From: a virus
IMG/VR virus record: IMGVR_UViG_3300029581_000022
Span: 1 to 42,414 of that record
Strand: one strand, 5' to 3'
Length of the DNA stretch: 42,414 nt
Shown: positions 8,823 through 36,386 of the stretch, piece after piece
Layout of the letters: each line of letters opens with the position of its first letter
How positions within the stretch are numbered: the stretch's first letter is position 1
Notes under the pieces: model-generated
Told to the model about the DNA's origin: nothing
The model's input: only the letters and a program-made list of their open reading frames with translations
The model's database searches: none
Translations under genes and position numbers: made by a program

Positions 8823-9013
8823 AGCTGGAAGAGTTGATTCGGCAGCAGGCCGAAGAGCACCTGAAAACAGCCACACGGCTTGCAACGGAGTCCGCGCTCA
8901 CGGGAGACATCTGGCTGCGGGTCATCTGCCGGGAAAAATCAGAGGTCTATAGCGCGGCGGCAGATGGGCTGCTCACAGCCCTCCACGATGCGGAGGACGT
9001 CGCACATGGCTGA
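8819..9013 (+). CDS. Hypothetical protein
   Basis: 64 aa, ATGA overlap with the upstream gene. Confidence 0.45.
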   Translation: MKLEELIRQQAEEHLKTATRLATESALTGDIWLRVICREKSEVYSAAADGLLTALHDAEDVAHG

Positions 9014-9284
9014 TTACATCCACTATGTCACATGGTACACCGTGTACAGCGCCAAGACCGGTGAGGTGGTGGCAGCGGGAACGTCCGCCATGTGCGCTGC
9101 GAAGCTTGGATACAAGACCGCCAACAGCTTTGCGTCTGTCGTTGGACACCGACGCCATGAAAAAAAGAATCCGCACAAGTACATTTTTGAGCAGGAGCGC
9201 ATTGATCGTGCGGAGGTCGACTGCCTCCCCCCACTTCGCCGTTACTGCAAAAAGACGAAAAGGGAACAGGAATATGAACGGTAG
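9006..9284 (+). CDS. Hypothetical protein
   Basis: Internal ATG (MADYIHYVTWYTVYS...) of track ORF 8880-9284. It fits the gene-to-gene overlap pattern. Confidence 0.45.
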   Translation: MADYIHYVTWYTVYSAKTGEVVAAGTSAMCAAKLGYKTANSFASVVGHRRHEKKNPHKYIFEQERIDRAEVDCLPPLRRYCKKTKREQEYER

Positions 9285-9534
9285 ATATATGCGAGCCGCA
9301 GAGATTCGCTGGCATAATCGTCAGCCGGAGCGGCTGCGGCACATCCACCAGAAGAAGGAGAAGAAAAAGGTGAGCACGGTACAGATCTTTGACGCGGATT
9401 TGCGTTTTGTCAACGAAATCCCCATGCCGAACACGTTGGCTGGCATCCAGTACGCCGACCAGCTGGCAGCAGAAAAGCCGGGCCGTCTGTACGTCGTTAT
9501 GGACGAGCACCGGCAGAAGGTTTACCAGAGGTGA
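9274..9534 (+). CDS. Hypothetical protein
   Basis: Internal ATG (MNGRYMRAAEIRW...) of track ORF 9025-9534. Confidence 0.45.
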   Translation: MNGRYMRAAEIRWHNRQPERLRHIHQKKEKKKVSTVQIFDADLRFVNEIPMPNTLAGIQYADQLAAEKPGRLYVVMDEHRQKVYQR

Positions 9535-9539
9535 CGTAC

Positions 9540-9986
9540 ATGACTTTAGAGCAAAAGGAACGCCGCAAAGCGGTTCTGCGGTATGCAGTCAGCGTCCCTG
9601 AATGGAATCTTGCGCTCAAGCATCGGGCGGCAACAGAGCTTACGAAATGCGCAAGCCTTTTGATGAGCGTAAGCCAGATGATGCTTGCGACCGACGCGGA
9701 AGACCGTTTTTATCCGGACAGATTAGATTATGGGATGTCTCCGACGGGATATGCAAAAGCCATTTCGGATGCAGAGTACAGCCTCGGCGCAGCCGCTTCG
9801 GCGCTGGAAACCGTAGTTGCTTTGGCAGATGAGTCAAACGCCTTCCCGCTTATCAGCTCCACCCAGACCGGCGGGTTAGATGACGCGATGGGCAACATTG
9901 AGGCGGCCTACAATTCTGGTCTTGGATGGCTGGCAGATCTGTGCCGGGTACACGGGATGGATGAGGTGACATACGATCATGGATAA
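9540..9986 (+). CDS. Hypothetical protein
   Basis: ATG 9540 has AGAGG 8 nt upstream. The track's GTG at 9531 sits directly on the SD. Confidence 0.5.
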   Translation: MTLEQKERRKAVLRYAVSVPEWNLALKHRAATELTKCASLLMSVSQMMLATDAEDRFYPDRLDYGMSPTGYAKAISDAEYSLGAAASALETVVALADESNAFPLISSTQTGGLDDAMGNIEAAYNSGLGWLADLCRVHGMDEVTYDHG

Positions 9987-10605
9987 AATGACCATTTACG
10001 AGCAGTGCCGGGAAGTCCCCCAAGACGCCCAGAAGCCTATCGCAGCGGGTCGCCTGAAGGGCAAGACCGACATTAACCCCATGTGGCGCATCAAGAAGCT
10101 GACTGAGCTTTTTGGCCCGGCTGGTATGGGCTGGAAGTTCGACCCGCCGGTGTTCGAGGAAAAGACCGGAGCAAAGGGCGAAGTTGTCGTGCAGTGCTTT
10201 ACGAATTTGTACGTCAGGCAGGATGATGGGGAAGCGTGGAGCGCCCCCATCCCCGGAGTGGGCGGCTCTATGCTGATTGTGCTGGAGTCAACGGGGCTCC
10301 GAACGGATGATGACGCTTACAAAAAAGCGTACACGGATGCCCAGAGCGTGGCCTGCAAGGCGCTTGGAATCGGCGCGAATGTGTACTGGAAAGATGAATC
10401 CACCAAGTGCACCCCGCTTCCGGCCACTCCCGCCCCGGTGTGCGCCTGCTGCGGAAAGAAAATCATCGGCATCAAAACCAAGGACGGGAAAAAGATGACT
10501 GCTGAGCAGGCGGCAGAACGAAGCAAGGCAAAATATGGGCGTATACTCTGCGTAGAATGCGCAAAGAAACAGCCGAAAGAAGATGGAGGAATGTCTCATG
10601 CTTAA
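9979..10605 (+). CDS. Rad52/Sak-like single-strand annealing protein with C-terminal zinc ribbon
   Basis: TDINPMWRIKKLTELFGPAGMGWKF ... AYTDAQSVACKALGIGANVYW resembles phage Rad52-fold annealases. C-terminus CACCGKK...CVECAKK. Followed directly by SSB. Confidence 0.6.
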   Translation: MDKMTIYEQCREVPQDAQKPIAAGRLKGKTDINPMWRIKKLTELFGPAGMGWKFDPPVFEEKTGAKGEVVVQCFTNLYVRQDDGEAWSAPIPGVGGSMLIVLESTGLRTDDDAYKKAYTDAQSVACKALGIGANVYWKDESTKCTPLPATPAPVCACCGKKIIGIKTKDGKKMTAEQAAERSKAKYGRILCVECAKKQPKEDGGMSHA

Positions 10606-11086
10606 CCTCGTAGCATTGATGGGCCGCCTGGTCTACGACCCGGAGCTCAAGACCACCCAGAACGGCACCAACGTGTGCAGCTTCCGCATCGCGGTTGACC
10701 GCAGCTTTGCCCGGCAGGGCGAAGAGCGCAAGGCCGATTTTATCGACGTCACCGCATGGCGGCAGACCGCCGAGTTCGTCTGTAAGTATTTCCAGAAGGG
10801 CAGCATGATCGCAGTCGAAGGCAGCTTGCAGACCCGTCAGTACCAGGACAAGAACGGCAACAACCGCACGGCTACCGAGGTTCTTGCGTCGCAGGTGAGC
10901 TTTTGCGGCGGAAAGGCCGCAGAGAAGCCCGCTGTGCGCGATTTCGACCAGCAGACGGAAAATCATGTGCGCGAAGCAAACGCCGCTTACAGCACATCGC
11001 AGAAGCCTCAGAGCGTACCGGAGTATTCGCAGGGCAGCGCAGACGACTTTTCAGTCATCGACGACTCGGAGGACTTGCCGTTCTAA
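10598..11086 (+). CDS. ssb: Single-stranded DNA-binding protein
   Basis: MLNLVALMGRLVYDPELKTTQNGTNVCSFRIAVDR...IAVEGSLQTRQYQDKNG is an OB fold. The acidic tail ends DDSEDLPF. GGAGG lies 8 nt before ATG 10598. Confidence 0.9.
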   Translation: MLNLVALMGRLVYDPELKTTQNGTNVCSFRIAVDRSFARQGEERKADFIDVTAWRQTAEFVCKYFQKGSMIAVEGSLQTRQYQDKNGNNRTATEVLASQVSFCGGKAAEKPAVRDFDQQTENHVREANAAYSTSQKPQSVPEYSQGSADDFSVIDDSEDLPF

Positions 11087-16310: not shown

Positions 16311-16383
16311 ACTCCGGTAGCTCAAGTGGTAGAGCAGCGGTCTCCAAAACCGCATGTTGCAGGTTCGAGTCCTGCCGGGAGTG
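16311..16383 (+). tRNA. tRNA-Trp (anticodon CCA)
   Basis: 73 nt: actccgg-ta-gctc-aagtggta-gagc-a-gcggt-CTCCAAA-accgc-atgtt-gcagg-ttcgagt-cctgc-cgggagt-g. One G:G mismatch in the acceptor stem. CCA is not encoded. Confidence 0.75.
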
Positions 16384-16507
16384 CTTGCATGATCTGACGA
16401 GAGCGGGGAGTGCAATAGCGGGGCATCCAGCCGCGAAAGTTCTGGACGCAGCAGCACCCACCGTTTACGCCTGTCCGTCAAACTGAATGCACGGGTGCTG
16501 CTTATAT

Positions 16508-16643
16508 GCCGTCATAGCTCAACTGGCAGAGCGCCGCCCATTTAAGGCGGGACAACATTGGTGATACCACGGGAACATCACTGCACAGCCAACCACTGCG
16601 CACATCCATTCCGTGGGTGCTGGTTCGAATCCGGCTGGCGGCA
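16508..16643 (+). tRNA. tRNA-like gene with a 68-nt insertion at the variable-loop position; anticodon loop CAUUUAA (UUU, Lys-type, but A at position 33)
   Basis: Acceptor gccgtca/tggcggc (1 GU). D arm gctc-aactggca-gagc. Anticodon arm ccgcc-CATTTAA-ggcgg. T arm gctgg-ttcgaat-ccggc. Discriminator a. Nt 16551-16618 lie between the anticodon and T arms and contain an 8-bp stem (16567-16574 / 16609-16616). Confidence 0.5.
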
Positions 16644-23184: not shown

Positions 23185-23261
23185 GCCGCTTTAGCTCAGG
23201 TTGGCAGAGCGCCGGATTTGTAATCCGGGGGGCGTGGGTTCAAGCCCCACAGGCGGCACCA
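23185..23261 (+). tRNA. tRNA-Thr (anticodon UGU), CCA encoded
   Basis: gccgctt-ta-gctc-aggttggca-gagc-g-ccgga-TTTGTAA-tccgg-ggggc-gtggg-ttcaagc-cccac-aggcggc-a-cca. All arms are canonical. Confidence 0.9.
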
Positions 23262-27371: not shown

Positions 27372-30245
27372 GTGCAGAACAGCACCAAAAAAGCTGTCAC
27401 GGAGCTGGGCTCCGAGTACAGCAAGGCAGCGCAGAAAGTCGCCGAACTGACAAAGCGGTACAACGAATCGGCTGAAAAGACCGGGCACACCTCTGTGCAG
27501 ACCAAGGAGCTGAAAGCTGCTCTGGCCTCTGCCCGGGCTGAACTGAAAGAGACCACCTCCGCCCTGAAATCCGCAAACAACGGCATGGAGAGCTTTGCCA
27601 ACTCCACGGATAAGGCATCCGGTAAGTCTCTGGCCGGTGCTATTGCACAAGGCACGGTCATGGCGGGCGTTTTCTCGAAGCTTTACTCCGCTGCACTCAG
27701 TGCCGCAGAGGGGCTCATCTCTTCCGGTATCCAGTATAACGCCCAGCTGGAAAGCTACACCACCGGCTTTACCAACATGCTGGGCAGCGCTGAGGCGGCC
27801 AAAGCGGCCATGGACGCCATTCAGGAGGACGCCGCCCGCACCCCCTTTGATGTGGCGAGCTTGACACAGGCCAATCAGCTGCTCATCAGCGCCGGTGAAA
27901 ATGCAGGTTACTCCCGCAAGGTCATCATGGCGCTGGGCGACGCTGTTTCGGCTACAGGTGGCGGCAATGCAGAGCTGTCCCGCATGTCGGCAAACCTGCA
28001 GCAGATCGCCAACGTGGGCAAGGCGTCCGCCATCGACATCAAGCAGTTTGCCTATGCAGGTATCAACGTCTATCAGGTCCTGGCCGACTACACCGGAAAA
28101 TCGGTGCAGGAAGTCCAGAAGATGACCATCAGCTATGATACTCTGTCTCAGGCCCTTATCGCGGCCAGCGAAGAGGGCGGACGATATTACAACGCCATGG
28201 ACACCCAAAGCCAGACCATGAATGGCCGGGTATCCACGTTGAAAGATAACGTGAGCCAGCTGGCGGGTCTTATGACCGGCAATTTGTCTGAGGCTGTCAG
28301 TACGGTCATATCAAAGCTCAATGACATGACCGTTGCCGCTATTGAAGCCTATAAGCAAGATGGCTGGTGGGGAATGGCCGGAGCAGCACTTTCTGTTATC
28401 GAGCCGATCAATGAAGTGGGGCAAGCACTTGACGGCGTAAAAGAAAAAGCCAACGCTGCACTTACGCATATTACCTATCTAATCAATTCCTTGACCGTCC
28501 CCAACTTTGCGTATAGCAGCGAAGAAGAGTATGCCGCAGCGTTGGAAACCAACGAACGCCGAAGCGAAGGAAGCCGAGAAACCGAGAGGGAACGCAGGCT
28601 ATACCTTCACAATCAGCGAGTGGCTCAAGCTCAGGCAGCTGCTGCCGCTGCGGCAAGCTCTATCACTGGAGGCGGCAGCGGTGGGAGCTCTTCCGGTGGA
28701 AAGTCTGGCTCAAGGTCCACCACCGAAACGGTCATTTCGTCTATCTCAAGAACGGCTACAACTACCGCTCAGAACGCCCTCGGCACCGTGACCACCAGCA
28801 TCCAGACTCTGAGCGAAAAGGTCAAGGACAGCGCGGGCAGCATCAAAGACCGCATCACCGAGACCACCACCGAGACCGGCAAGGAGATGGTCAACGGCAT
28901 CGAGACCACCTATAAACAGGTGGAGACCAAGGTCAACGGCGTGGTGACTAAAACCACAAAGACGTACGACGATATGTCGAAAACGCTGGCAGCCACCCTG
29001 ACCCGCACCACCAGCAAGGTAGAGGGCGGCGTGACAACGGCGATCCAGGAGGTCACCAAAAAATACGCCGACGGCTCCGAGCACATCGAAAAGACTGAGA
29101 CCATCACCGAAGAAAACATCGTCGATGGAGTGGCCCAGACCACTAAAACCATCAACACCTATATCGACGGTGTGCTCCAGAATACCAAGGTTGACACCGA
29201 AGAGGCTGAAAAAAGCATCCAGGCTGCGCTTTCCCGCACCGAAAAGTATATCTCCGAGATTCAGGGGCAGTCTGACAAAGGCATTTTCGGGCTGGTGAAG
29301 TCTCTCTTTACTGACATCAAAAACAAAGACGGCAAGGCCATCGCCGGGGATGTGGTAAAGGTCATTTTCGGACAGGTGACGCAAGAGCAGCGAAACACCA
29401 TTCTGAAATGGGCAGACGATGCAATGACCGCCATCAATGAGCACTACGCGCAGGGCGGCATTCAGGGGGCGCTGCAGAGCATTGCAGGCCTTTTCAGCAA
29501 CGGCATCACCCCAGCGGTCAACGGCTCCACCAAAGAAGTGCAGAGCTTTGCCGCCGCCATGAAGGGCCTTTCCGGCACCGGAGGCTCTGGCGGCATCGTC
29601 AGCAGCATCCTCAAGCTGTTCGGCGGCGGTACAAAGGCTGCGGCGGCTGCCGGTGAAGCCGGGGCCGGGCAGGCCATCGCGTCCGCAGCGGGCGGAGCAG
29701 CATCTTTCTTCCCGGAGTGCCTTGCTGTGCTGGCCGTCATCGCAGAGGGCGTTGTGGGCTTCAAGATGGGCCAGAACGCCCGCGCCCGCGAGGATTCTGG
29801 CGAAGAGCGCTCTCTGGGAAGCAAGCTCCTCTCCGGCGCACTTCTGGCGGCCACCGGCCCTGTCGGCTGGCTCAGCTACTTCTTCGGTAAAAAGTTTGGC
29901 AAAAAGTCCTCGTCCTCGTCTGCTGCAGCAGAAAGCGCCCCGTCTGGCGCCATGAGCTATCTGGACATTCAGGACGCCTACTGGTACGGCAACGAGCGGG
30001 CTTTTGCGGGCTACGACTACCGCAGCGACCCCTTTACCTACAACCCCAACAACAATTCCGTTCCCAAATATCAGGCGGAGATACAGGCCCAGCTTGCAAA
30101 GCTGAGCACCGTAGTGGAGCAGTATCTGCCCGACGTGGCAAATCAGCAGATCGTGCTGGATGACGGCACCATTGTGGGTGCTCTCGCCCCCGGCATGAAC
30201 GACCAGCTGGGCCATATCCAGATGCTTGCAGAAAGGGGAAACTGA
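27372..30245 (+). CDS. Tape measure protein
   Basis: 957 aa, with long helical and Gly-rich hydrophobic segments. The frame is open from 27297. GGAGGAGGTGA (27286-27296) sits 6 nt before a CTG at 27303, so the true start may lie upstream of the GTG at 27372. Confidence 0.85.
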   Translation: MQNSTKKAVTELGSEYSKAAQKVAELTKRYNESAEKTGHTSVQTKELKAALASARAELKETTSALKSANNGMESFANSTDKASGKSLAGAIAQGTVMAGVFSKLYSAALSAAEGLISSGIQYNAQLESYTTGFTNMLGSAEAAKAAMDAIQEDAARTPFDVASLTQANQLLISAGENAGYSRKVIMALGDAVSATGGGNAELSRMSANLQQIANVGKASAIDIKQFAYAGINVYQVLADYTGKSVQEVQKMTISYDTLSQALIAASEEGGRYYNAMDTQSQTMNGRVSTLKDNVSQLAGLMTGNLSEAVSTVISKLNDMTVAAIEAYKQDGWWGMAGAALSVIEPINEVGQALDGVKEKANAALTHITYLINSLTVPNFAYSSEEEYAAALETNERRSEGSRETERERRLYLHNQRVAQAQAAAAAAASSITGGGSGGSSSGGKSGSRSTTETVISSISRTATTTAQNALGTVTTSIQTLSEKVKDSAGSIKDRITETTTETGKEMVNGIETTYKQVETKVNGVVTKTTKTYDDMSKTLAATLTRTTSKVEGGVTTAIQEVTKKYADGSEHIEKTETITEENIVDGVAQTTKTINTYIDGVLQNTKVDTEEAEKSIQAALSRTEKYISEIQGQSDKGIFGLVKSLFTDIKNKDGKAIAGDVVKVIFGQVTQEQRNTILKWADDAMTAINEHYAQGGIQGALQSIAGLFSNGITPAVNGSTKEVQSFAAAMKGLSGTGGSGGIVSSILKLFGGGTKAAAAAGEAGAGQAIASAAGGAASFFPECLAVLAVIAEGVVGFKMGQNARAREDSGEERSLGSKLLSGALLAATGPVGWLSYFFGKKFGKKSSSSSAAAESAPSGAMSYLDIQDAYWYGNERAFAGYDYRSDPFTYNPNNNSVPKYQAEIQAQLAKLSTVVEQYLPDVANQQIVLDDGTIVGALAPGMNDQLGHIQMLAERGN

Positions 30246-30246
30246 G

Positions 30247-32061
30247 ATGTACGAGATTTTTGCGTATCCCTACGGTGACCCCGAAAACAAGCTGATCGTC
30301 TATCAGCCGGGCAACCGGCAGGCTGTGGTGCTGTCGCCCAAGCTTACCCGCGAGGTGAGCAAGGGCGGCAGCCTTACTTTTACCATGCTGCGCACCCACC
30401 CCTGCTACGAATCCATGCAGAAGATGTCCACCGCTGTGGCGGTGCATCAGGACGGCAAGGAGATATGGCGTGGACGGGTGCTCAGCCACGAAGCCGACTG
30501 GCTCAACCGCCGGGTCATCTACTGCGAGGGGGCTCTCAGCTATTTCAATGATAGTTGCATCACTCCCTTCAACTACGAGGGCAAGCTGAAGGATTTTTTG
30601 GAATACCTCATCAAAGCCCACAACTCCCAGATTTCCGGCGGCAATGGCTACGAGGAGCAGACCAGCTACGACAAGATGAAAAAGTTTGAGCTGGGCAGGG
30701 TGACTGCCGCCCTCGGCGACCTTGTGGTGAGCTACGGTGACCGCAACCAGTACGGCGTGGGTGAGGACTACGGAAGCACCTGGGACATCATCAGCAAAAT
30801 GGTGCTCAAGACCTACGGCGGCTACGCTTACTGCACCTATAACTCCACCACCGGCATGAACGTGCTCAACTACTGTGACCAGGCATACGAGGCTGACCGG
30901 CAGACCGCCCAGAACATCGAATATGGCGTGAATCTGCTGGATTTCACCGAAAAGACCGACACCAACGACCTTTTTACCCGCATCTGGCCGATGGGCAACA
31001 AGCACACCGTCGAAGAGACCAAAACCCAGTGGAAATACAAGTTCCTGTGGTTTAAGTGGGGCTCGACTACCGTGACGACCGGCACCCACGAAGAGCGCTA
31101 CGGCATCAACGGCACGAGCCAGAGCGCCGTTGATAAGTACCTCCCGAAAAAAGGCTACAGCTGGAATCGGGAGTACGGGTGGATCCAGAACGACGAGGCC
31201 GTAAAAAAGTTTGGCGTGGTCTCCAAAATCAGGGAGTTTGACACGGACAGCAGCGACGCCACCTTTGCCGCTGCGGTGCAGGACCTGGAAAAAAACGACC
31301 TCATGACCATGAGCTATGAGGTCAAGGCTGTTGACCTTGTGGATGCGGGCTATGATACCGAGCGGCTGACCTTTGCCAGCTTTGCCCATATCATCAGCAA
31401 GCCCCACAGCATCGACGTTATCATGCTCTGCACCAAGCTTGTGGAGCCGCTCGACCACCCGGAAAAGAAGGAGTACACCTTTGGCATGACCCGGCGCACC
31501 CTCACTGACCGGGCCGTGGCAAATCTGGGCGTGACCAACGAGCTCTCCGAAAAGACGGCATCCACCAGCAGGTATGCAGGTACAACGCAGATAGACACCA
31601 CGCAGGCGGGCAAAACTGCCAGCGATTTTATCGACTACGCCCCCGCCTCCGGTATGACAGTGGGCCACGCCAGCATCACGGCCAACATCCATTTCGGGAC
31701 GGACGGTCTGACCTTCTCCGGCGTAAAAAACGGCACCGAGCTGCAAAGCTGGTCGGGCTCCACCTTTGCGGCCCAGACCACGAGCACAGACCTCTCCGGC
31801 TATGCGGCGGTGCTGCTCACCTACGACGGAGACGCCGCAGCGTGGGCTTCCGCCGGGGGCAGTGGCCGAGCCTTTGCAGTGCTGCCGGTGAACGGCAAGA
31901 CCTACTCCATCCTCTTCCCCGGCGCTCTGGCCCAGCGGCGGGACGTCACGGCGTCCAAAAGCGGCGTGACCTTTGGCAGCGGATACCGACAGACGGCGGC
32001 AGGCGCATGGGTGCAGGATGATACTGCCTGCCGCCCTGAGGCGCTGCAGGGCTTTATGTAA
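30247..32061 (+). CDS. Tail-tip protein (Tal / prophage-tail N-terminal-region-like)
   Basis: N-terminus MYEIFAYPYG...KLTREVSKGGSLTFTM...GKEIWRGRVL and STWDIISKMV..YGGY resemble the phage minor structural protein N-terminal region. Confidence 0.55.
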   Translation: MYEIFAYPYGDPENKLIVYQPGNRQAVVLSPKLTREVSKGGSLTFTMLRTHPCYESMQKMSTAVAVHQDGKEIWRGRVLSHEADWLNRRVIYCEGALSYFNDSCITPFNYEGKLKDFLEYLIKAHNSQISGGNGYEEQTSYDKMKKFELGRVTAALGDLVVSYGDRNQYGVGEDYGSTWDIISKMVLKTYGGYAYCTYNSTTGMNVLNYCDQAYEADRQTAQNIEYGVNLLDFTEKTDTNDLFTRIWPMGNKHTVEETKTQWKYKFLWFKWGSTTVTTGTHEERYGINGTSQSAVDKYLPKKGYSWNREYGWIQNDEAVKKFGVVSKIREFDTDSSDATFAAAVQDLEKNDLMTMSYEVKAVDLVDAGYDTERLTFASFAHIISKPHSIDVIMLCTKLVEPLDHPEKKEYTFGMTRRTLTDRAVANLGVTNELSEKTASTSRYAGTTQIDTTQAGKTASDFIDYAPASGMTVGHASITANIHFGTDGLTFSGVKNGTELQSWSGSTFAAQTTSTDLSGYAAVLLTYDGDAAAWASAGGSGRAFAVLPVNGKTYSILFPGALAQRRDVTASKSGVTFGSGYRQTAAGAWVQDDTACRPEALQGFM

Positions 32062-32076
32062 AGGAGCGTGATTTTT

Positions 32077-32580
32077 ATGGGCAAGCTCATGGGGGCAAAA
32101 ATCGGCTCTCTGCACACCTTGGACGACCTCGGCCTTTACCTGTTGGTTGGCAGCCCGCTCATCTCCGGGGCTGAGCCGGACAAAAAGCTTGTGCAAGTGC
32201 CGGGCGGCGATTTCTTGCTCGACCTCACCCGGGCTGTGGACGGCAAGGTACACTACCTCCAGCGCACTATTCGGCTTGACCTTAAATGTAAGGCTCCGTC
32301 AGATGAGCGCCGCAAGGTGCAGAGCATCCTCGAAAACGCCTTGCAGGGGCAGTGGCTGCGCTGCGTACTGGACGAGGACCCGGCCAACTTCTGGGTGGGC
32401 CTGTGGACAGTGTCGCCCCAGAGCAGAGACCGGCATACCGGCACATTTTCCATCACCGGCACCTGCAATCCCTACAAGTACAATGCCACCGCCTACGCGG
32501 GCGCAGACTGGCTGTGGGACGATTTTTATTTTGATGAGGACGTCATCTATGACGAGCCTACGGAGGTAAAGAGCCTGTGA
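32077..32580 (+). CDS. Distal tail protein (Dit / Sipho_tail-like)
   Basis: SLHTLDDLGLYLL..VQVPGGDFLLD..YLQRTIRLDLKC...FSITGTCNPYKY fits the Dit pattern. ATG 32077 lies 10 nt after AAGGAG. Confidence 0.45.
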   Translation: MGKLMGAKIGSLHTLDDLGLYLLVGSPLISGAEPDKKLVQVPGGDFLLDLTRAVDGKVHYLQRTIRLDLKCKAPSDERRKVQSILENALQGQWLRCVLDEDPANFWVGLWTVSPQSRDRHTGTFSITGTCNPYKYNATAYAGADWLWDDFYFDEDVIYDEPTEVKSL

Positions 32581-34526
32581 ACAAAACTTTTGAAGAAAAC
32601 ATCAACGACATCCGCAAGGCAAAGCGGGGCGTCGAGGTGCGGGAGGCGATGGCCGAGAGCCTTGAGTATGTGGAGGGCTTTGCCTCCACCGCTACCCAAA
32701 AGGCAGAGGAGGCCGCATCCAGCGCCAAAACTGCCGCCGAGGCCAAGGAAGCCGCCGCCGCCTCTGCTCAGGCTGCGGAACAGCAGGCAGGCATTGCCAC
32801 GCAGCAGGCCGAGACTGCCACGCAGCAGGCCGAGGCCGCTGAAAGCTCCAAAGCTGCCGCTGCGGAGTCTGCCAAGCGGGCAGAGGCGGCTGCCAAGGAG
32901 ACCGAGGGCCGCGTCACCACCGACCCCACCCTCACCATCTCGGGCGCACCCGCAGACGCCAAAGCCACCGGCGACCGCATCAACGCTATCAAAATCGAGA
33001 CCGACAAGACCCTCACCATCTCCGGCGCTGCTGCGGACGCTGCGGCTGTAGGCAGCATCGTACTGCCCCGGGTGGTGGTGCAGACGGAAGCGGGAAGCAC
33101 CGTCACCGCAGTCAGCGGGGACAAAAAGGTAACTGGCACGGCCACCGACGGCAGCTTTTCTGCGGCCCTGCCCCACGACGGCGAGTGGGAGGTCACCGCC
33201 ACGCTCGGCACCGGCGTGGCCACGGAGACAATGCAGGCGGAGTATTGCCGCACCAAGACCCTTACCCTGACCTACTACACCCTGACCGTCACGGTTAAGG
33301 CGGGCAGCACCGTCACCGCCCAGTGCGGGGACAAGACCGTCTCCGGCACGGTGCCGGAGAGCGGCAGCATCAAGCTGTATCTGCCCATCGCTGGCACGTG
33401 GACGGTAACGGCCACGTTGGGCGACGAGACCGCCGAGGGCAGCTTGGAGGTGAGCGAGTACAAGGACTATCCCCTTGAACTTGCATACACCCACATCTAC
33501 GGCGCAAGCTGGGACGGCACCAGCACCACCAAGTGGAGCCGCACCGACGAGGCGGCAGACTTTACCGACCCGGTGCCTTACGTCGCGGGCGCAAGCAGCT
33601 ATGGCAGTCCCTTTGACAACTTACAGCCCTGGGCGGGCATGGTAAAGAGCGAGCGCACCGGCGGCACGATGGTCAGCATCCCGAAATTTTGGTACAAGCT
33701 GACCCAAAACGGCAGGGGCATGAGCATTCAGATCGCCGACCGCGCGGTGGAGGGCTACAGCGTCAGCCCCGCCCACATGGACAGAGGCGACGGTCACGGT
33801 GAGCGGGACGTGGTGTACATCGGCAGATACCACTGCAACGACAGCTATAAGAGCGGCATCGGCAGCCCCAGGGCGAACATGACCCGCTCCTCTGCCCGGG
33901 CGAACATCCACGGCCTCGGCTCTGCCATCTGGCAGTGCGATTTTGCTATGAGGTTTACGCTCTGGCTGCTGTATATCGTCGAGTTTGCCGATTGGAACAG
34001 TCAGGCAAAAATCGGCTATGGATGCGGCAACAACAGCTCTCCGCAGTCGATGGGCTACACCGACAGTATGCCGTACCACACCGGTACGACCCAGAGCAGC
34101 CGCACCGCCTATGGCTACGGGACGCAGTACCGCAACATCGAGGGCCTGTGGGATAACGTGTTGGACTGGTGCGATGGCTGCTACAACAACAGCGACGGCC
34201 TGAACATCATCCTGAACCCCTCCAAGTTCAGCGACAGCAGCGGCGGCACGGCGGTGGGCGTCCCTTCCAATGGCTATCCGTCCGCTTTTGCGGTCAAGGC
34301 GACCGGCGGGTATCCGCTCTTTATCCCGACTGCCGCAAACGGCCGCGCCGAGACCTACTCGTGCGATTTCTGGGGCTTCGGCTCGTCGTACCCCTGCCTC
34401 TCCGTTGGCGGTAGCTATGGCCAGAGCGCCAACCGCGGTCTGTTCTACGTCAACTACTCCTCGGTTTCGAACACTTACGGGGACATCGGCTGTCGTCTCC
34501 AAGAACTCCCCAACGGGGGAGTCTGA
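32577..34526 (+). CDS. Tail fibre / receptor-binding protein; DGR target with C-terminal C-type-lectin/FGE-like variable domain
   Basis: 649 aa. N-terminal Ala/Gln/Glu coiled coil, duplicated TLTISGA.AD motifs and two beta-sandwich repeats. The C-terminus ...YSCDFWGFGSSYPCLSVGGSYGQSANRGLFYVNYSSVSNTYGDIGCRLQ contains the VR. Confidence 0.85.
   Translation: MNKTFEENINDIRKAKRGVEVREAMAESLEYVEGFASTATQKAEEAASSAKTAAEAKEAAAASAQAAEQQAGIATQQAETATQQAEAAESSKAAAAESAKRAEAAAKETEGRVTTDPTLTISGAPADAKATGDRINAIKIETDKTLTISGAAADAAAVGSIVLPRVVVQTEAGSTVTAVSGDKKVTGTATDGSFSAALPHDGEWEVTATLGTGVATETMQAEYCRTKTLTLTYYTLTVTVKAGSTVTAQCGDKTVSGTVPESGSIKLYLPIAGTWTVTATLGDETAEGSLEVSEYKDYPLELAYTHIYGASWDGTSTTKWSRTDEAADFTDPVPYVAGASSYGSPFDNLQPWAGMVKSERTGGTMVSIPKFWYKLTQNGRGMSIQIADRAVEGYSVSPAHMDRGDGHGERDVVYIGRYHCNDSYKSGIGSPRANMTRSSARANIHGLGSAIWQCDFAMRFTLWLLYIVEFADWNSQAKIGYGCGNNSSPQSMGYTDSMPYHTGTTQSSRTAYGYGTQYRNIEGLWDNVLDWCDGCYNNSDGLNIILNPSKFSDSSGGTAVGVPSNGYPSAFAVKATGGYPLFIPTAANGRAETYSCDFWGFGSSYPCLSVGGSYGQSANRGLFYVNYSSVSNTYGDIGCRLQELPNGGV
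34358..34500 (+). repeat. DGR variable region (VR)
   Basis: 143 bp aligned without gaps to 34618-34760 (offset 260). There are 17 mismatches, 14 opposite TR adenines. Confidence 0.9.
34505..34522 (+). promoter_or_regulatory. GC-rich hairpin 4 nt downstream of the VR (DGR target-recognition-type element)
   Basis: actcccc-aacg-ggggagt: 7-bp stem, 4-nt loop. It ends just before the fibre stop codon (34524-34526). Confidence 0.6.
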
Positions 34527-34617
34527 GGGGGCCGCAGCCCACTCAGATAATTGCGCCGTAAGGCGCTGAACTTTTTTGGGACTGTCTGTGCATTGCCGGT
34601 GTTTTTTGTTCTCAGAC

Positions 34618-34760
34618 CTCGTGCGATAACTGGAACTTCGACTCGTCGAACCCCTGCCTCTCCGTTGGCGGTAACTATGACCAGAACGCCAACCACGGTC
34701 TGTTCTACGTCAACTACAACTCGGTTTCGAACGCGAACGGGAACATCGGCTGTCGTTTCC
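34618..34760 (+). repeat. DGR template repeat (TR)
   Basis: It contains 11 AAC codons when read in the VR frame, and lies 139 nt upstream of the RT gene. Track ORF 34551-34820 over it is judged non-coding. Confidence 0.9.
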
Positions 34761-34899
34761 TTTTTGATTTTATCCAACCTCACATTTTTACGGCACAGGC
34801 AGCCGCACACCTCACGGTGAAGATAGGCATTTTGGGAGCAGGCTAGTACACTCCGCAGGGGGCGATGGAAAGCCTGTACAGCTAAAAGGAGGTATCCCA

Positions 34900-36096
34900 A
34901 TGAAGAGAGCTGGAAAGCTCTTTGATACGTTAATCTCAGATGATAATTTGTTGCGAGCCATCGACGAAGTGAACCGCACCCACCACTGGAATCGAGGCCA
35001 CAAGCCCAACACCTGTACGGCGTGGGTGGAGGAGACCAAGGCGCAGCGGGTGGAAGACCTGCGGCGAATACTCGTCGGCGGTTTTGAGCCGAAAAAGCCC
35101 CATGTCAGCCAGCGATGGGACGCCAATGCCCGGAAATGGCGCACCATCAGCGAACCGGCGCAGTGGCCGGACCAGTATGTGCATCACGCCCTCATTCAGG
35201 CGCTGCAGCCGAAGATGATGCGGGGAATGGATTTTTACTGCTGCGGCTCCATCCGGGAGCGCGGGCCGCACCGGGAAAAGAACGCCATCCAGCGATGGAT
35301 GAAGTACGACCGCAAGGGGATGAAGTACGAGTTTTGTGGCGACATCCGCCACTTCTACGACAGTCTGACCCCGGAAGTCGTCATGGCCCGGATGCGGCAG
35401 CTCTACAAGGACTGCCGTGTCCTCGACCTCATCCGGCGCATCATCCGGGACGGCGTAAAGCTGGGGACGTACACTTCCCAGTGGTTCGCCAACGCCGTCT
35501 TACAGCCCCTTGACCGGCTCATCCGGGAGAGCGGCTATTGCAAACACTACGCCCGGTACATGGACAACATGACGGCATTCGGTCCCAACAAACGCAAGCT
35601 GCGGAAGCTCCGCTTACTGGTCGAAGACTGGCTTGACGCCCACGGCCTGCAGCTCAAGGGCGACTGGCAGGTGTTCCCGGTGGCAAAACCGCAGCGCAAA
35701 GAGCCGCTGCTCCCGCCCCGGCGTGGCTATGAGCGCACCAAAGGCCGCCTGCCGGATGCCGTAGGCTATCGCTACGGCAGAGGGTACACCATTCCCCGCA
35801 AGCGGAATCTGCTGCACATCAAGCGGGCGCTGGCGCGGTATCGCAAGCGCAGGCGGCAGGGGAGGCCCATCACGCCCAGAGCGGCAGCAAGTCTGCTCTC
35901 GCGCCTCGGACAGCTCCGGCACTGCAACAATTATCATCTCTATCAATGGCTGTTTCGGGGAGAGCGGGTCGTCCGCGACCTGAAGCACGTCGTCCGAGAG
36001 CATCGGAGAAAGGAGAACCTGACGTGGACTATGTTTTTGGCACAGAGGGCGGCGCTGAAGTCCTCAAGACCATCGGCGACGCTCACACCGGTCTGA
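34900..36096 (+). CDS. DGR-type reverse transcriptase (motif C reads YMDN instead of YxDD)
   Basis: RT motifs: GDIRHFYDSL (A), GVKLGTYTSQWFANAVLQPLD (the DGR-typical SQ motif) and YARYMDNMTAF (C; AAC codon at 35566-35568). AAAGGAGG lies 7 nt before the ATG. Confidence 0.85.
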   Translation: MKRAGKLFDTLISDDNLLRAIDEVNRTHHWNRGHKPNTCTAWVEETKAQRVEDLRRILVGGFEPKKPHVSQRWDANARKWRTISEPAQWPDQYVHHALIQALQPKMMRGMDFYCCGSIRERGPHREKNAIQRWMKYDRKGMKYEFCGDIRHFYDSLTPEVVMARMRQLYKDCRVLDLIRRIIRDGVKLGTYTSQWFANAVLQPLDRLIRESGYCKHYARYMDNMTAFGPNKRKLRKLRLLVEDWLDAHGLQLKGDWQVFPVAKPQRKEPLLPPRRGYERTKGRLPDAVGYRYGRGYTIPRKRNLLHIKRALARYRKRRRQGRPITPRAAASLLSRLGQLRHCNNYHLYQWLFRGERVVRDLKHVVREHRRKENLTWTMFLAQRAALKSSRPSATLTPV

Positions 36097-36386
36097 CCGG
36101 CTACCACCAGCTTGAGCGGGAGTATCCCGACCAGACCATCACCGACAGTTTCCGGGTCATCCGCAAGCTGCGCAGCGCGGAGGACGCGGAGGGGCGCTGC
36201 TATGACTGGTACGAGATCGACCGCCACTACCGGATGACCGACAAGACCGGACCCGTGGCGGAGCAGCTGGCAAAGACTGCCGCAGAGATGGAGGACGCCC
36301 TGTGTGAGCAGGACATGGAATCACAGGAGCGGCTGGCGACTATCGAGGACTCGCTGTGCGAGCTGGACGCCGCCGTCAACAAGTAA
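36024..36386 (+). CDS. XkdW-position hypothetical protein
   Basis: The GTG start lies 7 nt after AAGGAGA. 120 aa. It overlaps the RT 3' end by 73 nt and precedes the XkdX-like gene. Confidence 0.5.
   Translation: MDYVFGTEGGAEVLKTIGDAHTGLTGYHQLEREYPDQTITDSFRVIRKLRSAEDAEGRCYDWYEIDRHYRMTDKTGPVAEQLAKTAAEMEDALCEQDMESQERLATIEDSLCELDAAVNK

Follow-up and report, generated by a model that had tools for sequence, protein, structure and literature searches.

Diversity-generating retroelements (DGRs) that act on tail-fibre genes are abundant in gut phages, and layouts of such elements without an accessory gene have already been catalogued. A cassette of this kind, consisting of a tail-fibre gene with a variable repeat (VR), a template repeat (TR) and a reverse transcriptase (RT) gene, is found in the IMG/VR virus record IMGVR_UViG_3300029581_000022, of which positions 1 to 42,414 were analysed as one stretch and are hereafter referred to as the window. 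The question raised by this locus is whether a cassette that lacks the accessory gene avd, and whose RT carries an Asn in place of the second catalytic Asp, functions as a DGR. The analysis described below indicates that it is very probably a working, or very recently working, accessory-less DGR of the target-TR-RT type in a temperate siphovirus. In the window copy all that such an element needs is intact: a full-length RT, an adenine-rich TR, the RNA motif RT-18, the base difference at the putative initiation of mutagenic homing (IMH) site and a hairpin downstream of the VR (hairpin 1, Table 1). A preliminary description of the window, made from its letters alone, had proposed that the end of the fibre protein is varied by a DGR; this proposal is now borne out by the statistics of the repeats, by an RT closest to that of Bordetella phage BPP-1, by a predicted fold of the C-type lectin (CLec) or formylglycine-generating enzyme (FGE) type and by VR variation confined to adenines among related phages.

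Adenine-specific variation at the fibre tip

The VR is part of the coding sequence of the fibre, and the TR has the RT gene as its neighbour. Together they form a near-identical direct repeat of 143 nt at an offset of 260, with no gaps and 88% identity, as established with a repeat finder and by direct comparison. The differences are nearly confined to the adenines of the TR, which account for 14 of the 17 mismatches (14 of 31 adenines versus 3 of 112 other bases; Fisher one-sided p = 1.4e-8), the changes from TR to VR being A to G in eight cases, A to T in five and A to C in one. All 14 fall on the first or second codon position of the fibre frame. Read in the frame of the VR, the TR contains 11 AAC codons and a total of 20 adenine-bearing, variable codons that correspond to 2.3e18 possible peptides, with a stop codon reachable from none of them. 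The preliminary description had given the same repeat coordinates, offset, mismatch counts, number of AAC codons and both encoded peptides, and all of these were correct. A BLAST search with the TR found no further copies besides the VR and the TR in the whole window, and the element therefore has a single target.

The remaining three mismatches are located at 34473 (TR G, VR A), 34475 (TR G, VR T) and 34497 (TR T, VR C). Two of them are held by a single codon, GCG in the TR (34733-34735) and ACT in the VR (34473-34475), which is polymorphic among the TRs of the relatives (TAT, TAC, GCC or GCG); the TR of the window has probably changed at this codon after the last homing event.

Variation in the phage population was examined in a set of 71 IMG/VR loci with an RT 83-99% identical to that of the window, and in 66 loci with both repeats (including the window and GenBank record MT838586), which carry 62 different VRs. 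In most of these loci every mismatch between TR and VR lies at a TR adenine, excepting repeat position 140 (TR T, VR C). Fourteen IMG/VR loci share one and the same TR, and variation among their VRs affects 31 of the 34 TR adenines versus 4 of the 109 other positions (p = 1e-23). When 59 loci were pooled, 682 of 1913 adenine sites were found to differ versus 128 of 6524 other sites, and position 140 alone accounts for 57 of these 128. The bases that replace TR adenines in the pooled loci are G (406, 60%), T (243, 36%) and C (33, 5%), a skew for which a preference of the enzyme and selection on the fibre are both possible sources. MT838586, a human faecal virome clone with 86% identity and the nearest GenBank record, has four adenine mismatches together with the difference at position 140, and the isolate genomes of Butyricicoccus pullicaecorum DSM 23266 and of a Lawsonibacter have 17 and 14 adenine mismatches, respectively, and no others. 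As the loci with identical TRs carry at least 11 different VRs that differ only at adenine positions, repeated and recent mutagenic events are needed to explain them, and the data thus show repeated, recent, adenine-specific rewriting of the fibre tip in this phage lineage.

Several related loci carry altered repeats. In locus L061 (5197-5863), a VR unit of 262 nt is present as a tandem duplicate, each copy with its own IMH and hairpin, and the two VRs carry different sets of adenine substitutions relative to one TR. Eroded TRs, with 5-17 of about 34 adenines left, are found about 140 nt upstream of the RT gene in six loci (L049, L031, L013, L021, L054 and L057). Across 36 unique TRs the adenine losses are to G (137), T (68) and C (13), the same order of G over T, and of both far over C, as in the mutagenesis of the VR. 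The eroded TRs suggest occasional self-homing into the TR or conversion of the TR by the VR, with misassembly as the alternative. In five further loci (L003-L006 and L068) the RT is 99% identical to that of the window, the TR is only 82-90% identical and non-adenine scaffold positions differ too; change by evolution or recombination is much faster in the template than in the enzyme. The exact TR allele of the window was absent from the IMG/VR and JGI metagenome contigs, in which a shorter pattern retrieved distant relatives only.

The reverse transcriptase and its YMDN motif

The RT that the preliminary description had located 139 nt after the TR, and had recognised by the motif GTYTSQWFAN, is encoded by an intact open reading frame (ORF). 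In its full form, LGTYTSQWFAN, the motif is the DGR signature [I/L/V]GxxxSQ in motif 4. The protein matches the phage RT family phrog_1423 (1.2e-64), and its best sequence match in the PDB is 8ub7_A, the 328-aa DGR RT of phage BPP-1 (E 7.5e-13), followed by a group II intron RT (3e-7). An AlphaFold2 (AF2) model with a predicted local distance difference test (pLDDT) score of 82 also has 8ub7_A as its top fold match (E 4e-14, target-normalised template modelling (TM) score 0.80), with group II RTs, DRT9, retron RTs and Abi-P2 ranking below it. L188 and R81 align with I181 and R74 of the BPP-1 enzyme (bRT), two residues experimentally shown to promote adenine mutagenesis (PMC7826257). The C-terminus carries about 50 extra basic residues. 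The idea that this extension mimics Avd, a four-helix bundle, was dropped as the model shows an ordinary thumb and a long basic helix (357-387).

Motif C of the enzyme reads YMDN (residues 220-223, 35557-35568, with N223 at 35566-35568) and is aligned to the YMDD of bRT; the preliminary description had not mentioned this catalytic motif. The reading is not an error of the window, as 118 of 120 close RT homologues carry RYMDN and N223 belongs to the 113 columns without variation. When 1.8 billion representative sequences were scanned, Y[MILAT]DN was found in relatives at 44-87% identity, with most of the farther ones carrying YxDD, and conservation of the Asn extends to relatives with an identity of about 40%. 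All of the 80 loci found with a 49%-identical homologue carry Y[MI]DN, except for one with CMDN, and where the upstream DNA exists nearly all have a TR/VR pair of 130-145 nt with 8-24 adenine mismatches and 0-2 others. Prophages in the Genome Taxonomy Database (GTDB) include NMDN and QMDN variants that also have adenine-specific repeat pairs, the QMDN variants carrying SA or SS in place of SQ. A control in which C, G or T was used as the tolerated base in the repeat search showed that the adenine bias is not a product of the scoring.

A compensating acidic residue for D223N was not found, the covarying columns being T225, A287 and R335. In a quick neighbour-joining tree of 103 sequences, the 27 xxDN sequences are not monophyletic and are scattered among the 76 xxDD sequences; either the change from Asp to Asn is recurrent or the tree does not resolve its history, and no single origin is claimed. 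Sequences of YMDN-type RTs are surely present already in published DGR catalogues, and a search of the searchable library found no paper that pairs 'YMDN' with reverse transcriptase or DGR, which is an absence of evidence.

Target fold, flanking elements and the weighing of rival explanations

The fibre ORF matches phrog_5302 'tail protein' (1.6e-31) and phrog_3279 'tail fiber'. Upstream of it lie the tape-measure gene (27372-30245), the gene for a Prophage_tail protein (30226-32061) and a small Dit-like ORF, a gene order that fits a receptor-binding fibre. Searches by sequence for a domain in the fibre (Pfam, NCBIfam, and PDB by phmmer and by profile) returned nothing relevant, with no match to Pfam FGE-sulfatase or DUF1566. 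An AF2 model of residues 341-649, built on 65 homologues, has a pLDDT of 92.2 and a predicted TM score of 0.93, and its top PDB folds in Foldseek are those of TaqVP (5vf4, E 1.6e-8) and TvpA (2y3c), followed by FGEs and by Mtd of BPP-1. The model thus supports, by fold and not by sequence, a CLec/FGE-type domain at the C-terminus, and the CLec scaffold that the preliminary description had assigned to the VR agrees with this prediction. The shaft contains two pairs of diverged direct repeats (33090-33141/33300-33351 and 32919-32959/33000-33040, 77-80% identity), a sign that modules of the shaft have been duplicated. In homologues, the CLec tip is joined to varied N-terminal parts, some of which carry Big_2 or Big_3 domains.

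The G+C-rich 14-mer at the 3' end of the VR is one base apart from its TR counterpart (34497 C, 34757 T), and the homology stops directly after it. The same T-to-C difference at repeat position 140 is present in 57 of 59 related loci, and by analogy it is the obvious candidate for the IMH/IMH* asymmetry of BPP-1. G+C hairpins follow downstream of the VR. Hairpin 1 shows no variation among the 53 distinct sequences that lie downstream of the VR in the 66 loci with both repeats, and an equivalent small hairpin takes its place in farther relatives. Hairpin 2 is perfect in close relatives (GGGGGC-CGCA-GCCCCC) or compensated (GGGGGT-CGCA-ACCCCC), and in distant relatives it becomes a G+C stem of 6-11 bp that differs in sequence, with full compensation and mostly the same CGCA loop. 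In BPP-1, a hairpin/cruciform is required 4-34 bp from the VR, and the loop consensus of phage DGRs is GRNA (PMC3240598); hairpin 2 is the likely counterpart of this structure. A terminator-like hairpin farther downstream, conserved in relatives, is predicted from its sequence to end the fibre transcript ahead of the TR.

The spacer between TR and RT contains a full-length match to Rfam RT-18 (63.7 bits versus a gathering score of 41.3, E 3.9e-9). RT-18 occurs at the same place, just upstream of the RT gene, in 14 of 16 related loci tested, including isolate prophages and Lactobacillus phage LBR48; Faecalibacterium phage FP_Epona has RT-4 in that position and Butyrivibrio phage Arawn has no Rfam match. 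Its inner stem, AC[T/C]CC-GCAR-GG[A/G]G, shows compensatory changes. The motifs RT-1 to RT-19 were described by Weinberg et al. (2017) just as motifs near RT genes, with RT-10 in the TR-brt spacer of BPP-1, and the guess was made that other RT motifs serve other DGRs (PMC5737381). By analogy with RT-10, RT-18 may be an element for RT binding, for priming or for both.

Several points weigh against a functional DGR in the window. To our knowledge, every biochemically characterised DGR RT is of the YxDD type, and the enzyme of the window is without the second catalytic aspartate. In retroviral RTs the same substitution has been reported as inactivating. The match to Pfam RVT_1 is just under the gathering threshold (27.6 versus 29.6), three of the 17 TR/VR mismatches lie outside adenines, hairpin 2 is mispaired in the window copy, and the loops AACG and CGCA are off the GRNA consensus of BPP-type phage DGRs. 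Avd is not found here though it is essential in BPP-1, and a sigma-70 scan found no promoter-like site upstream of the TR. The case for current activity of the window copy itself draws on its relatives.

Some of these points would also suit a fossil DGR, that is, an element that was once active and whose RT is now dead, with the TR/VR differences being historical and the present diversity arising through recombination between phages. The Asn at the second Asp of motif C, the RVT_1 score and the degradation of the TRs of some relatives to as few as five adenines are consistent with it. A dead gene, however, would not hold an intact ORF of 398 aa with 113 invariant columns, and the Asn itself is kept in nearly all close homologues and far beyond them, in RTs that almost without exception, where upstream DNA exists, are paired with adenine-specific repeats. 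The loci that share one TR and differ in their VRs only at adenine positions also argue against purely historical differences, and the fossil explanation is consequently regarded as improbable.

The two other explanations are scarcely credible. An RT that belongs to a different type of retroelement or to a defence system (group II intron, retron or Abi/DRT) and lies beside a duplicated fibre segment would agree with the weak matches of the protein to group II, retron and DRT models and with group II intron RTs being structurally next-best. These matches reach 20-66 bits, and the NCBIfam models for the three classes score 19-40 bits, far under the curated cut-offs of 200-450; PADLOC finds generic RT-domain similarity only, and Rfam shows RT-18 and no group II intron RNA or retron non-coding RNA in the window. 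The BPP-1 enzyme is the best match by both sequence and fold, the SQ signature is present, and a plain duplication leaves the adenine-specific differences unexplained. The group II intron, retron and defence-RT readings were thus rejected on scores, and an assignment of the RT to these clades, which the preliminary description had named as part of an outcome that would refute it, was not observed. Equally, the repeats could be thought of as a duplication that diverged by ordinary mutation and selection on the fibre tip, with no reverse transcription, given that diversifying selection acts on fibre tips and that three mismatches lie outside adenines. Such a process would not concentrate 14 of 17 changes at the adenines of a non-coding copy, which make up 22% of its positions, would not repeat the adenine bias in more than 100 independent loci and would not preserve TR codons unable to mutate to stops, and it is effectively refuted by the statistics.

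For the DGR reading, a mechanism may be outlined by analogy with phage BPP-1. An RNA that includes the TR and the structured spacer with RT-18 would be transcribed, and priming would take place in or near RT-18. The 398-aa RT would then make TR cDNA, faithful except for misincorporation opposite template adenines, with net changes of A to G, then A to T and rarely A to C, and would do so independently of Avd. The cDNA would replace the VR at the 3' end of the fibre gene, with direction and targeting probably provided by the IMH-like end of the VR, one base off the TR, and by the G+C hairpins downstream. In each such event 20 codons on the predicted ligand-binding face of the CLec-fold tip could be re-randomised, with up to about 2e18 peptides accessible and never a stop, and the phage may thereby change its receptor specificity.

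Genome context and comparison with known systems

The window represents a complete-looking temperate siphovirus with 55.6% G+C. In addition to the features in Table 1, it encodes antirepressors, a single-stranded DNA-binding protein, RusA, a terminase, an SPP1-type portal, a MuF-like protein and the tape measure, with an XkdX-like ORF and a GH25 endolysin downstream of the DGR. The preliminary description had placed the cassette next to XkdW/XkdX-like genes; the XkdX part is supported by PF09693 (24.9 bits, cut-off 23.5), and the XkdW part is unsupported, as the ORF after the RT gene has no Pfam or PADLOC match. The overlap of this ORF with the RT gene is conserved in MT838586. Two or three tRNAs are present, the third being an Rfam match of 136 nt (16508-16643, 45.4 bits) near tRNA-Trp that is not called by ARAGORN and that could be an interrupted or intron-containing tRNA.

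A profile scan of GTDB genomes found relatives as prophages in members of the Oscillospiraceae and in other Clostridia, among them Butyricicoccus, Dysosmobacter, Oscillibacter and Lawsonibacter; a scan of GTDB genomes for close relatives found none. In a Logan contig of SRR11412714 (L002), the RT of which is 94% identical, genes for ParA and Rep_3 are located downstream of the lysis module (8923-10797), in contrast to the tyrosine integrase of the window, and the same phage backbone may exist in plasmid-like and integrative forms.

Table 1. Coordinates of the DGR cassette and of other features of the window
Feature	Coordinates	Strand	Remarks
Tyrosine integrase	239-1372	minus	
tRNA-Trp	16311-16384		
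tRNA-Thr	23185-23261		
DGR target: tail fibre / receptor-binding protein, 649 aa	32577..34526	+	C-terminal C-type-lectin (FGE-like) domain; from ORF, PHROGs and predicted fold
Variable repeat (VR)	34358-34500	+	Fibre codons 594-641; aligns with the TR over 143 nt without gaps
IMH-like G+C-rich 3' end of the VR, CGGCTGTCGTCTCC	34487..34500	+	TR counterpart at 34747-34760, CGGCTGTCGTTTCC
Hairpin 1, ACTCCCC-AACG-GGGGAGT	34505..34522	+	7-bp stem, 4-nt loop; starts 5 nt past the VR; overlaps the last fibre codons
Hairpin 2, GGGGGC-CGCA-GCCCAC	34527..34542	+	One mispair in the window copy
Terminator-like hairpin GCGCC-GTAA-GGCGC with T-run	34553..34576	+	From a consensus scan; conserved in relatives
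Template repeat (TR)	34618-34760	+	Non-coding in place; 31 adenines
RT-18 RNA motif (Rfam RF03021)	34808..34891	+	TR-RT spacer; 3' end includes the ribosome-binding site of the RT gene
DGR reverse transcriptase, 398 aa	34900..36096	+	Starts 139 nt after the TR; good ribosome-binding site
ORF after the RT gene	35946-36386		Probable start GTG at 36024; overlaps the 3' end of the RT gene by 73 nt; AAAGGAGAA ribosome-binding site

As a tail-fibre DGR the element is ordinary; the conserved YMDN in an evidently functional lineage and the link to RT-18 are of modest but genuine interest. The related loci collected, over 100 in number and with B. pullicaecorum DSM 23266 among the isolate genomes, form a natural test set for adenine-specific diversification without the second catalytic aspartate, which bears on the selective infidelity of DGR RTs and on the engineering of compact, Avd-free mutagenesis tools. 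The orphan motif RT-18 gains a likely function as the TR-proximal RNA element of Avd-less DGRs. The relatives may also show the effect of slipped DGR directionality, with TR adenines lost according to the element's own spectrum and, in one locus, a duplicated VR target. A tentative and rather doubtful extension of these findings is that the window belongs to a large lineage of DGRs in gut phages with a mechanism distinct from that of BPP-1, with no need of Avd, RT-18 as a cis-acting scaffold or primer, a working (Y/N/C/Q)-M-D-N active site and one sub-branch with SA or SS for SQ. If it is true that the Asn lowers catalytic efficiency or shifts metal use, it may add to adenine-specific infidelity or to the self-sufficiency of the enzyme.

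With respect to the known architectures, a search of all 136 ORFs of the window with a length of 75-190 aa gave no match to the Avd family (which we take to be Pfam PF05635) at E <= 0.01. The TR begins 91 nt after the fibre stop codon, and the gap between VR and TR has no room for avd. Wu et al. (2018) found that 29% of DGRs lack accessory genes (Architecture A) and proposed that homing can be independent of Avd (PMC5758913). With the core order target-TR-RT and no accessory gene, the cassette of the window belongs to the accessory-less Architecture A1 of these authors and not to the Avd-dependent BPP-1 type (Architecture B), as avd beside the TR, the YxDD motif, an RT-10 spacer RNA and a GRNA hairpin loop are all lacking.

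The DGR of BPP-1 (mtd-VR-avd-TR-brt) nevertheless shares much with that of the window: a phage tail fibre as the target, with the CLec fold at its C-terminus and the VR at the 3' end of its gene, AAC codons in the TR, adenine-specific differences between TR and VR, a G+C-rich IMH-like end of the VR with G+C hairpins downstream, and an RT that is the closest among those of solved structure (8ub7_A), with the [I/L/V]GxxxSQ motif and an equivalent of R74. The two differ in the avd gene, which sits between VR and TR in BPP-1, in motif C (YMDD in BPP-1, YMDN in the window), in the spacer RNA (RT-10 versus RT-18) and in the hairpin loops (GRNA versus AACG and CGCA). The RT of the window is also 70 aa longer, with a basic C-terminal helix, and about 22% identical to that of BPP-1. 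Thus, the order target-VR-TR-RT given in the preliminary description is correct as such, and its equation with the BPP-1 paradigm does not hold.

Among the RTs of cultured phages, those of FP_Epona, Arawn and LBR48 are the nearest (30-32% identity); the three phages have Firmicutes hosts and no avd annotated nearby. As annotated, FP_Epona resembles the window in its order of fibre, TR, RT, small ORFs with XkdX and lysis genes, and in Arawn and LBR48 the RT gene also lies upstream of the lysis genes. In view of these layouts, the place of the cassette is a conserved module position with no visible sign of insertion, and the earlier suggestion that the cassette looks inserted into a tail-to-lysis junction cannot be shown. 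LBR48 additionally shares RT-18 upstream of the RT gene. Unlike the window, all three phages keep the second Asp (YMDD in Arawn and FP_Epona, NIDD in LBR48), and their fibre proteins are not close homologues of the window fibre.

For the target itself, the structures that best match the last 309 residues are those of TaqVP and TvpA (probability 1.00 and 0.99, TM 0.57 and 0.44, respectively), at a sequence identity of just 11-14%; unlike in these proteins, the domain is here joined to the shaft of a phage fibre, which has an Ala/Glu-rich N-terminus and contains two internal repeats. The spacer RNA, in turn, agrees with Rfam RF03021 in being a full-length match directly upstream of an RT gene, and differs from the family as described, 'near RT genes' and with no function given, in that it is found here in a DGR context.

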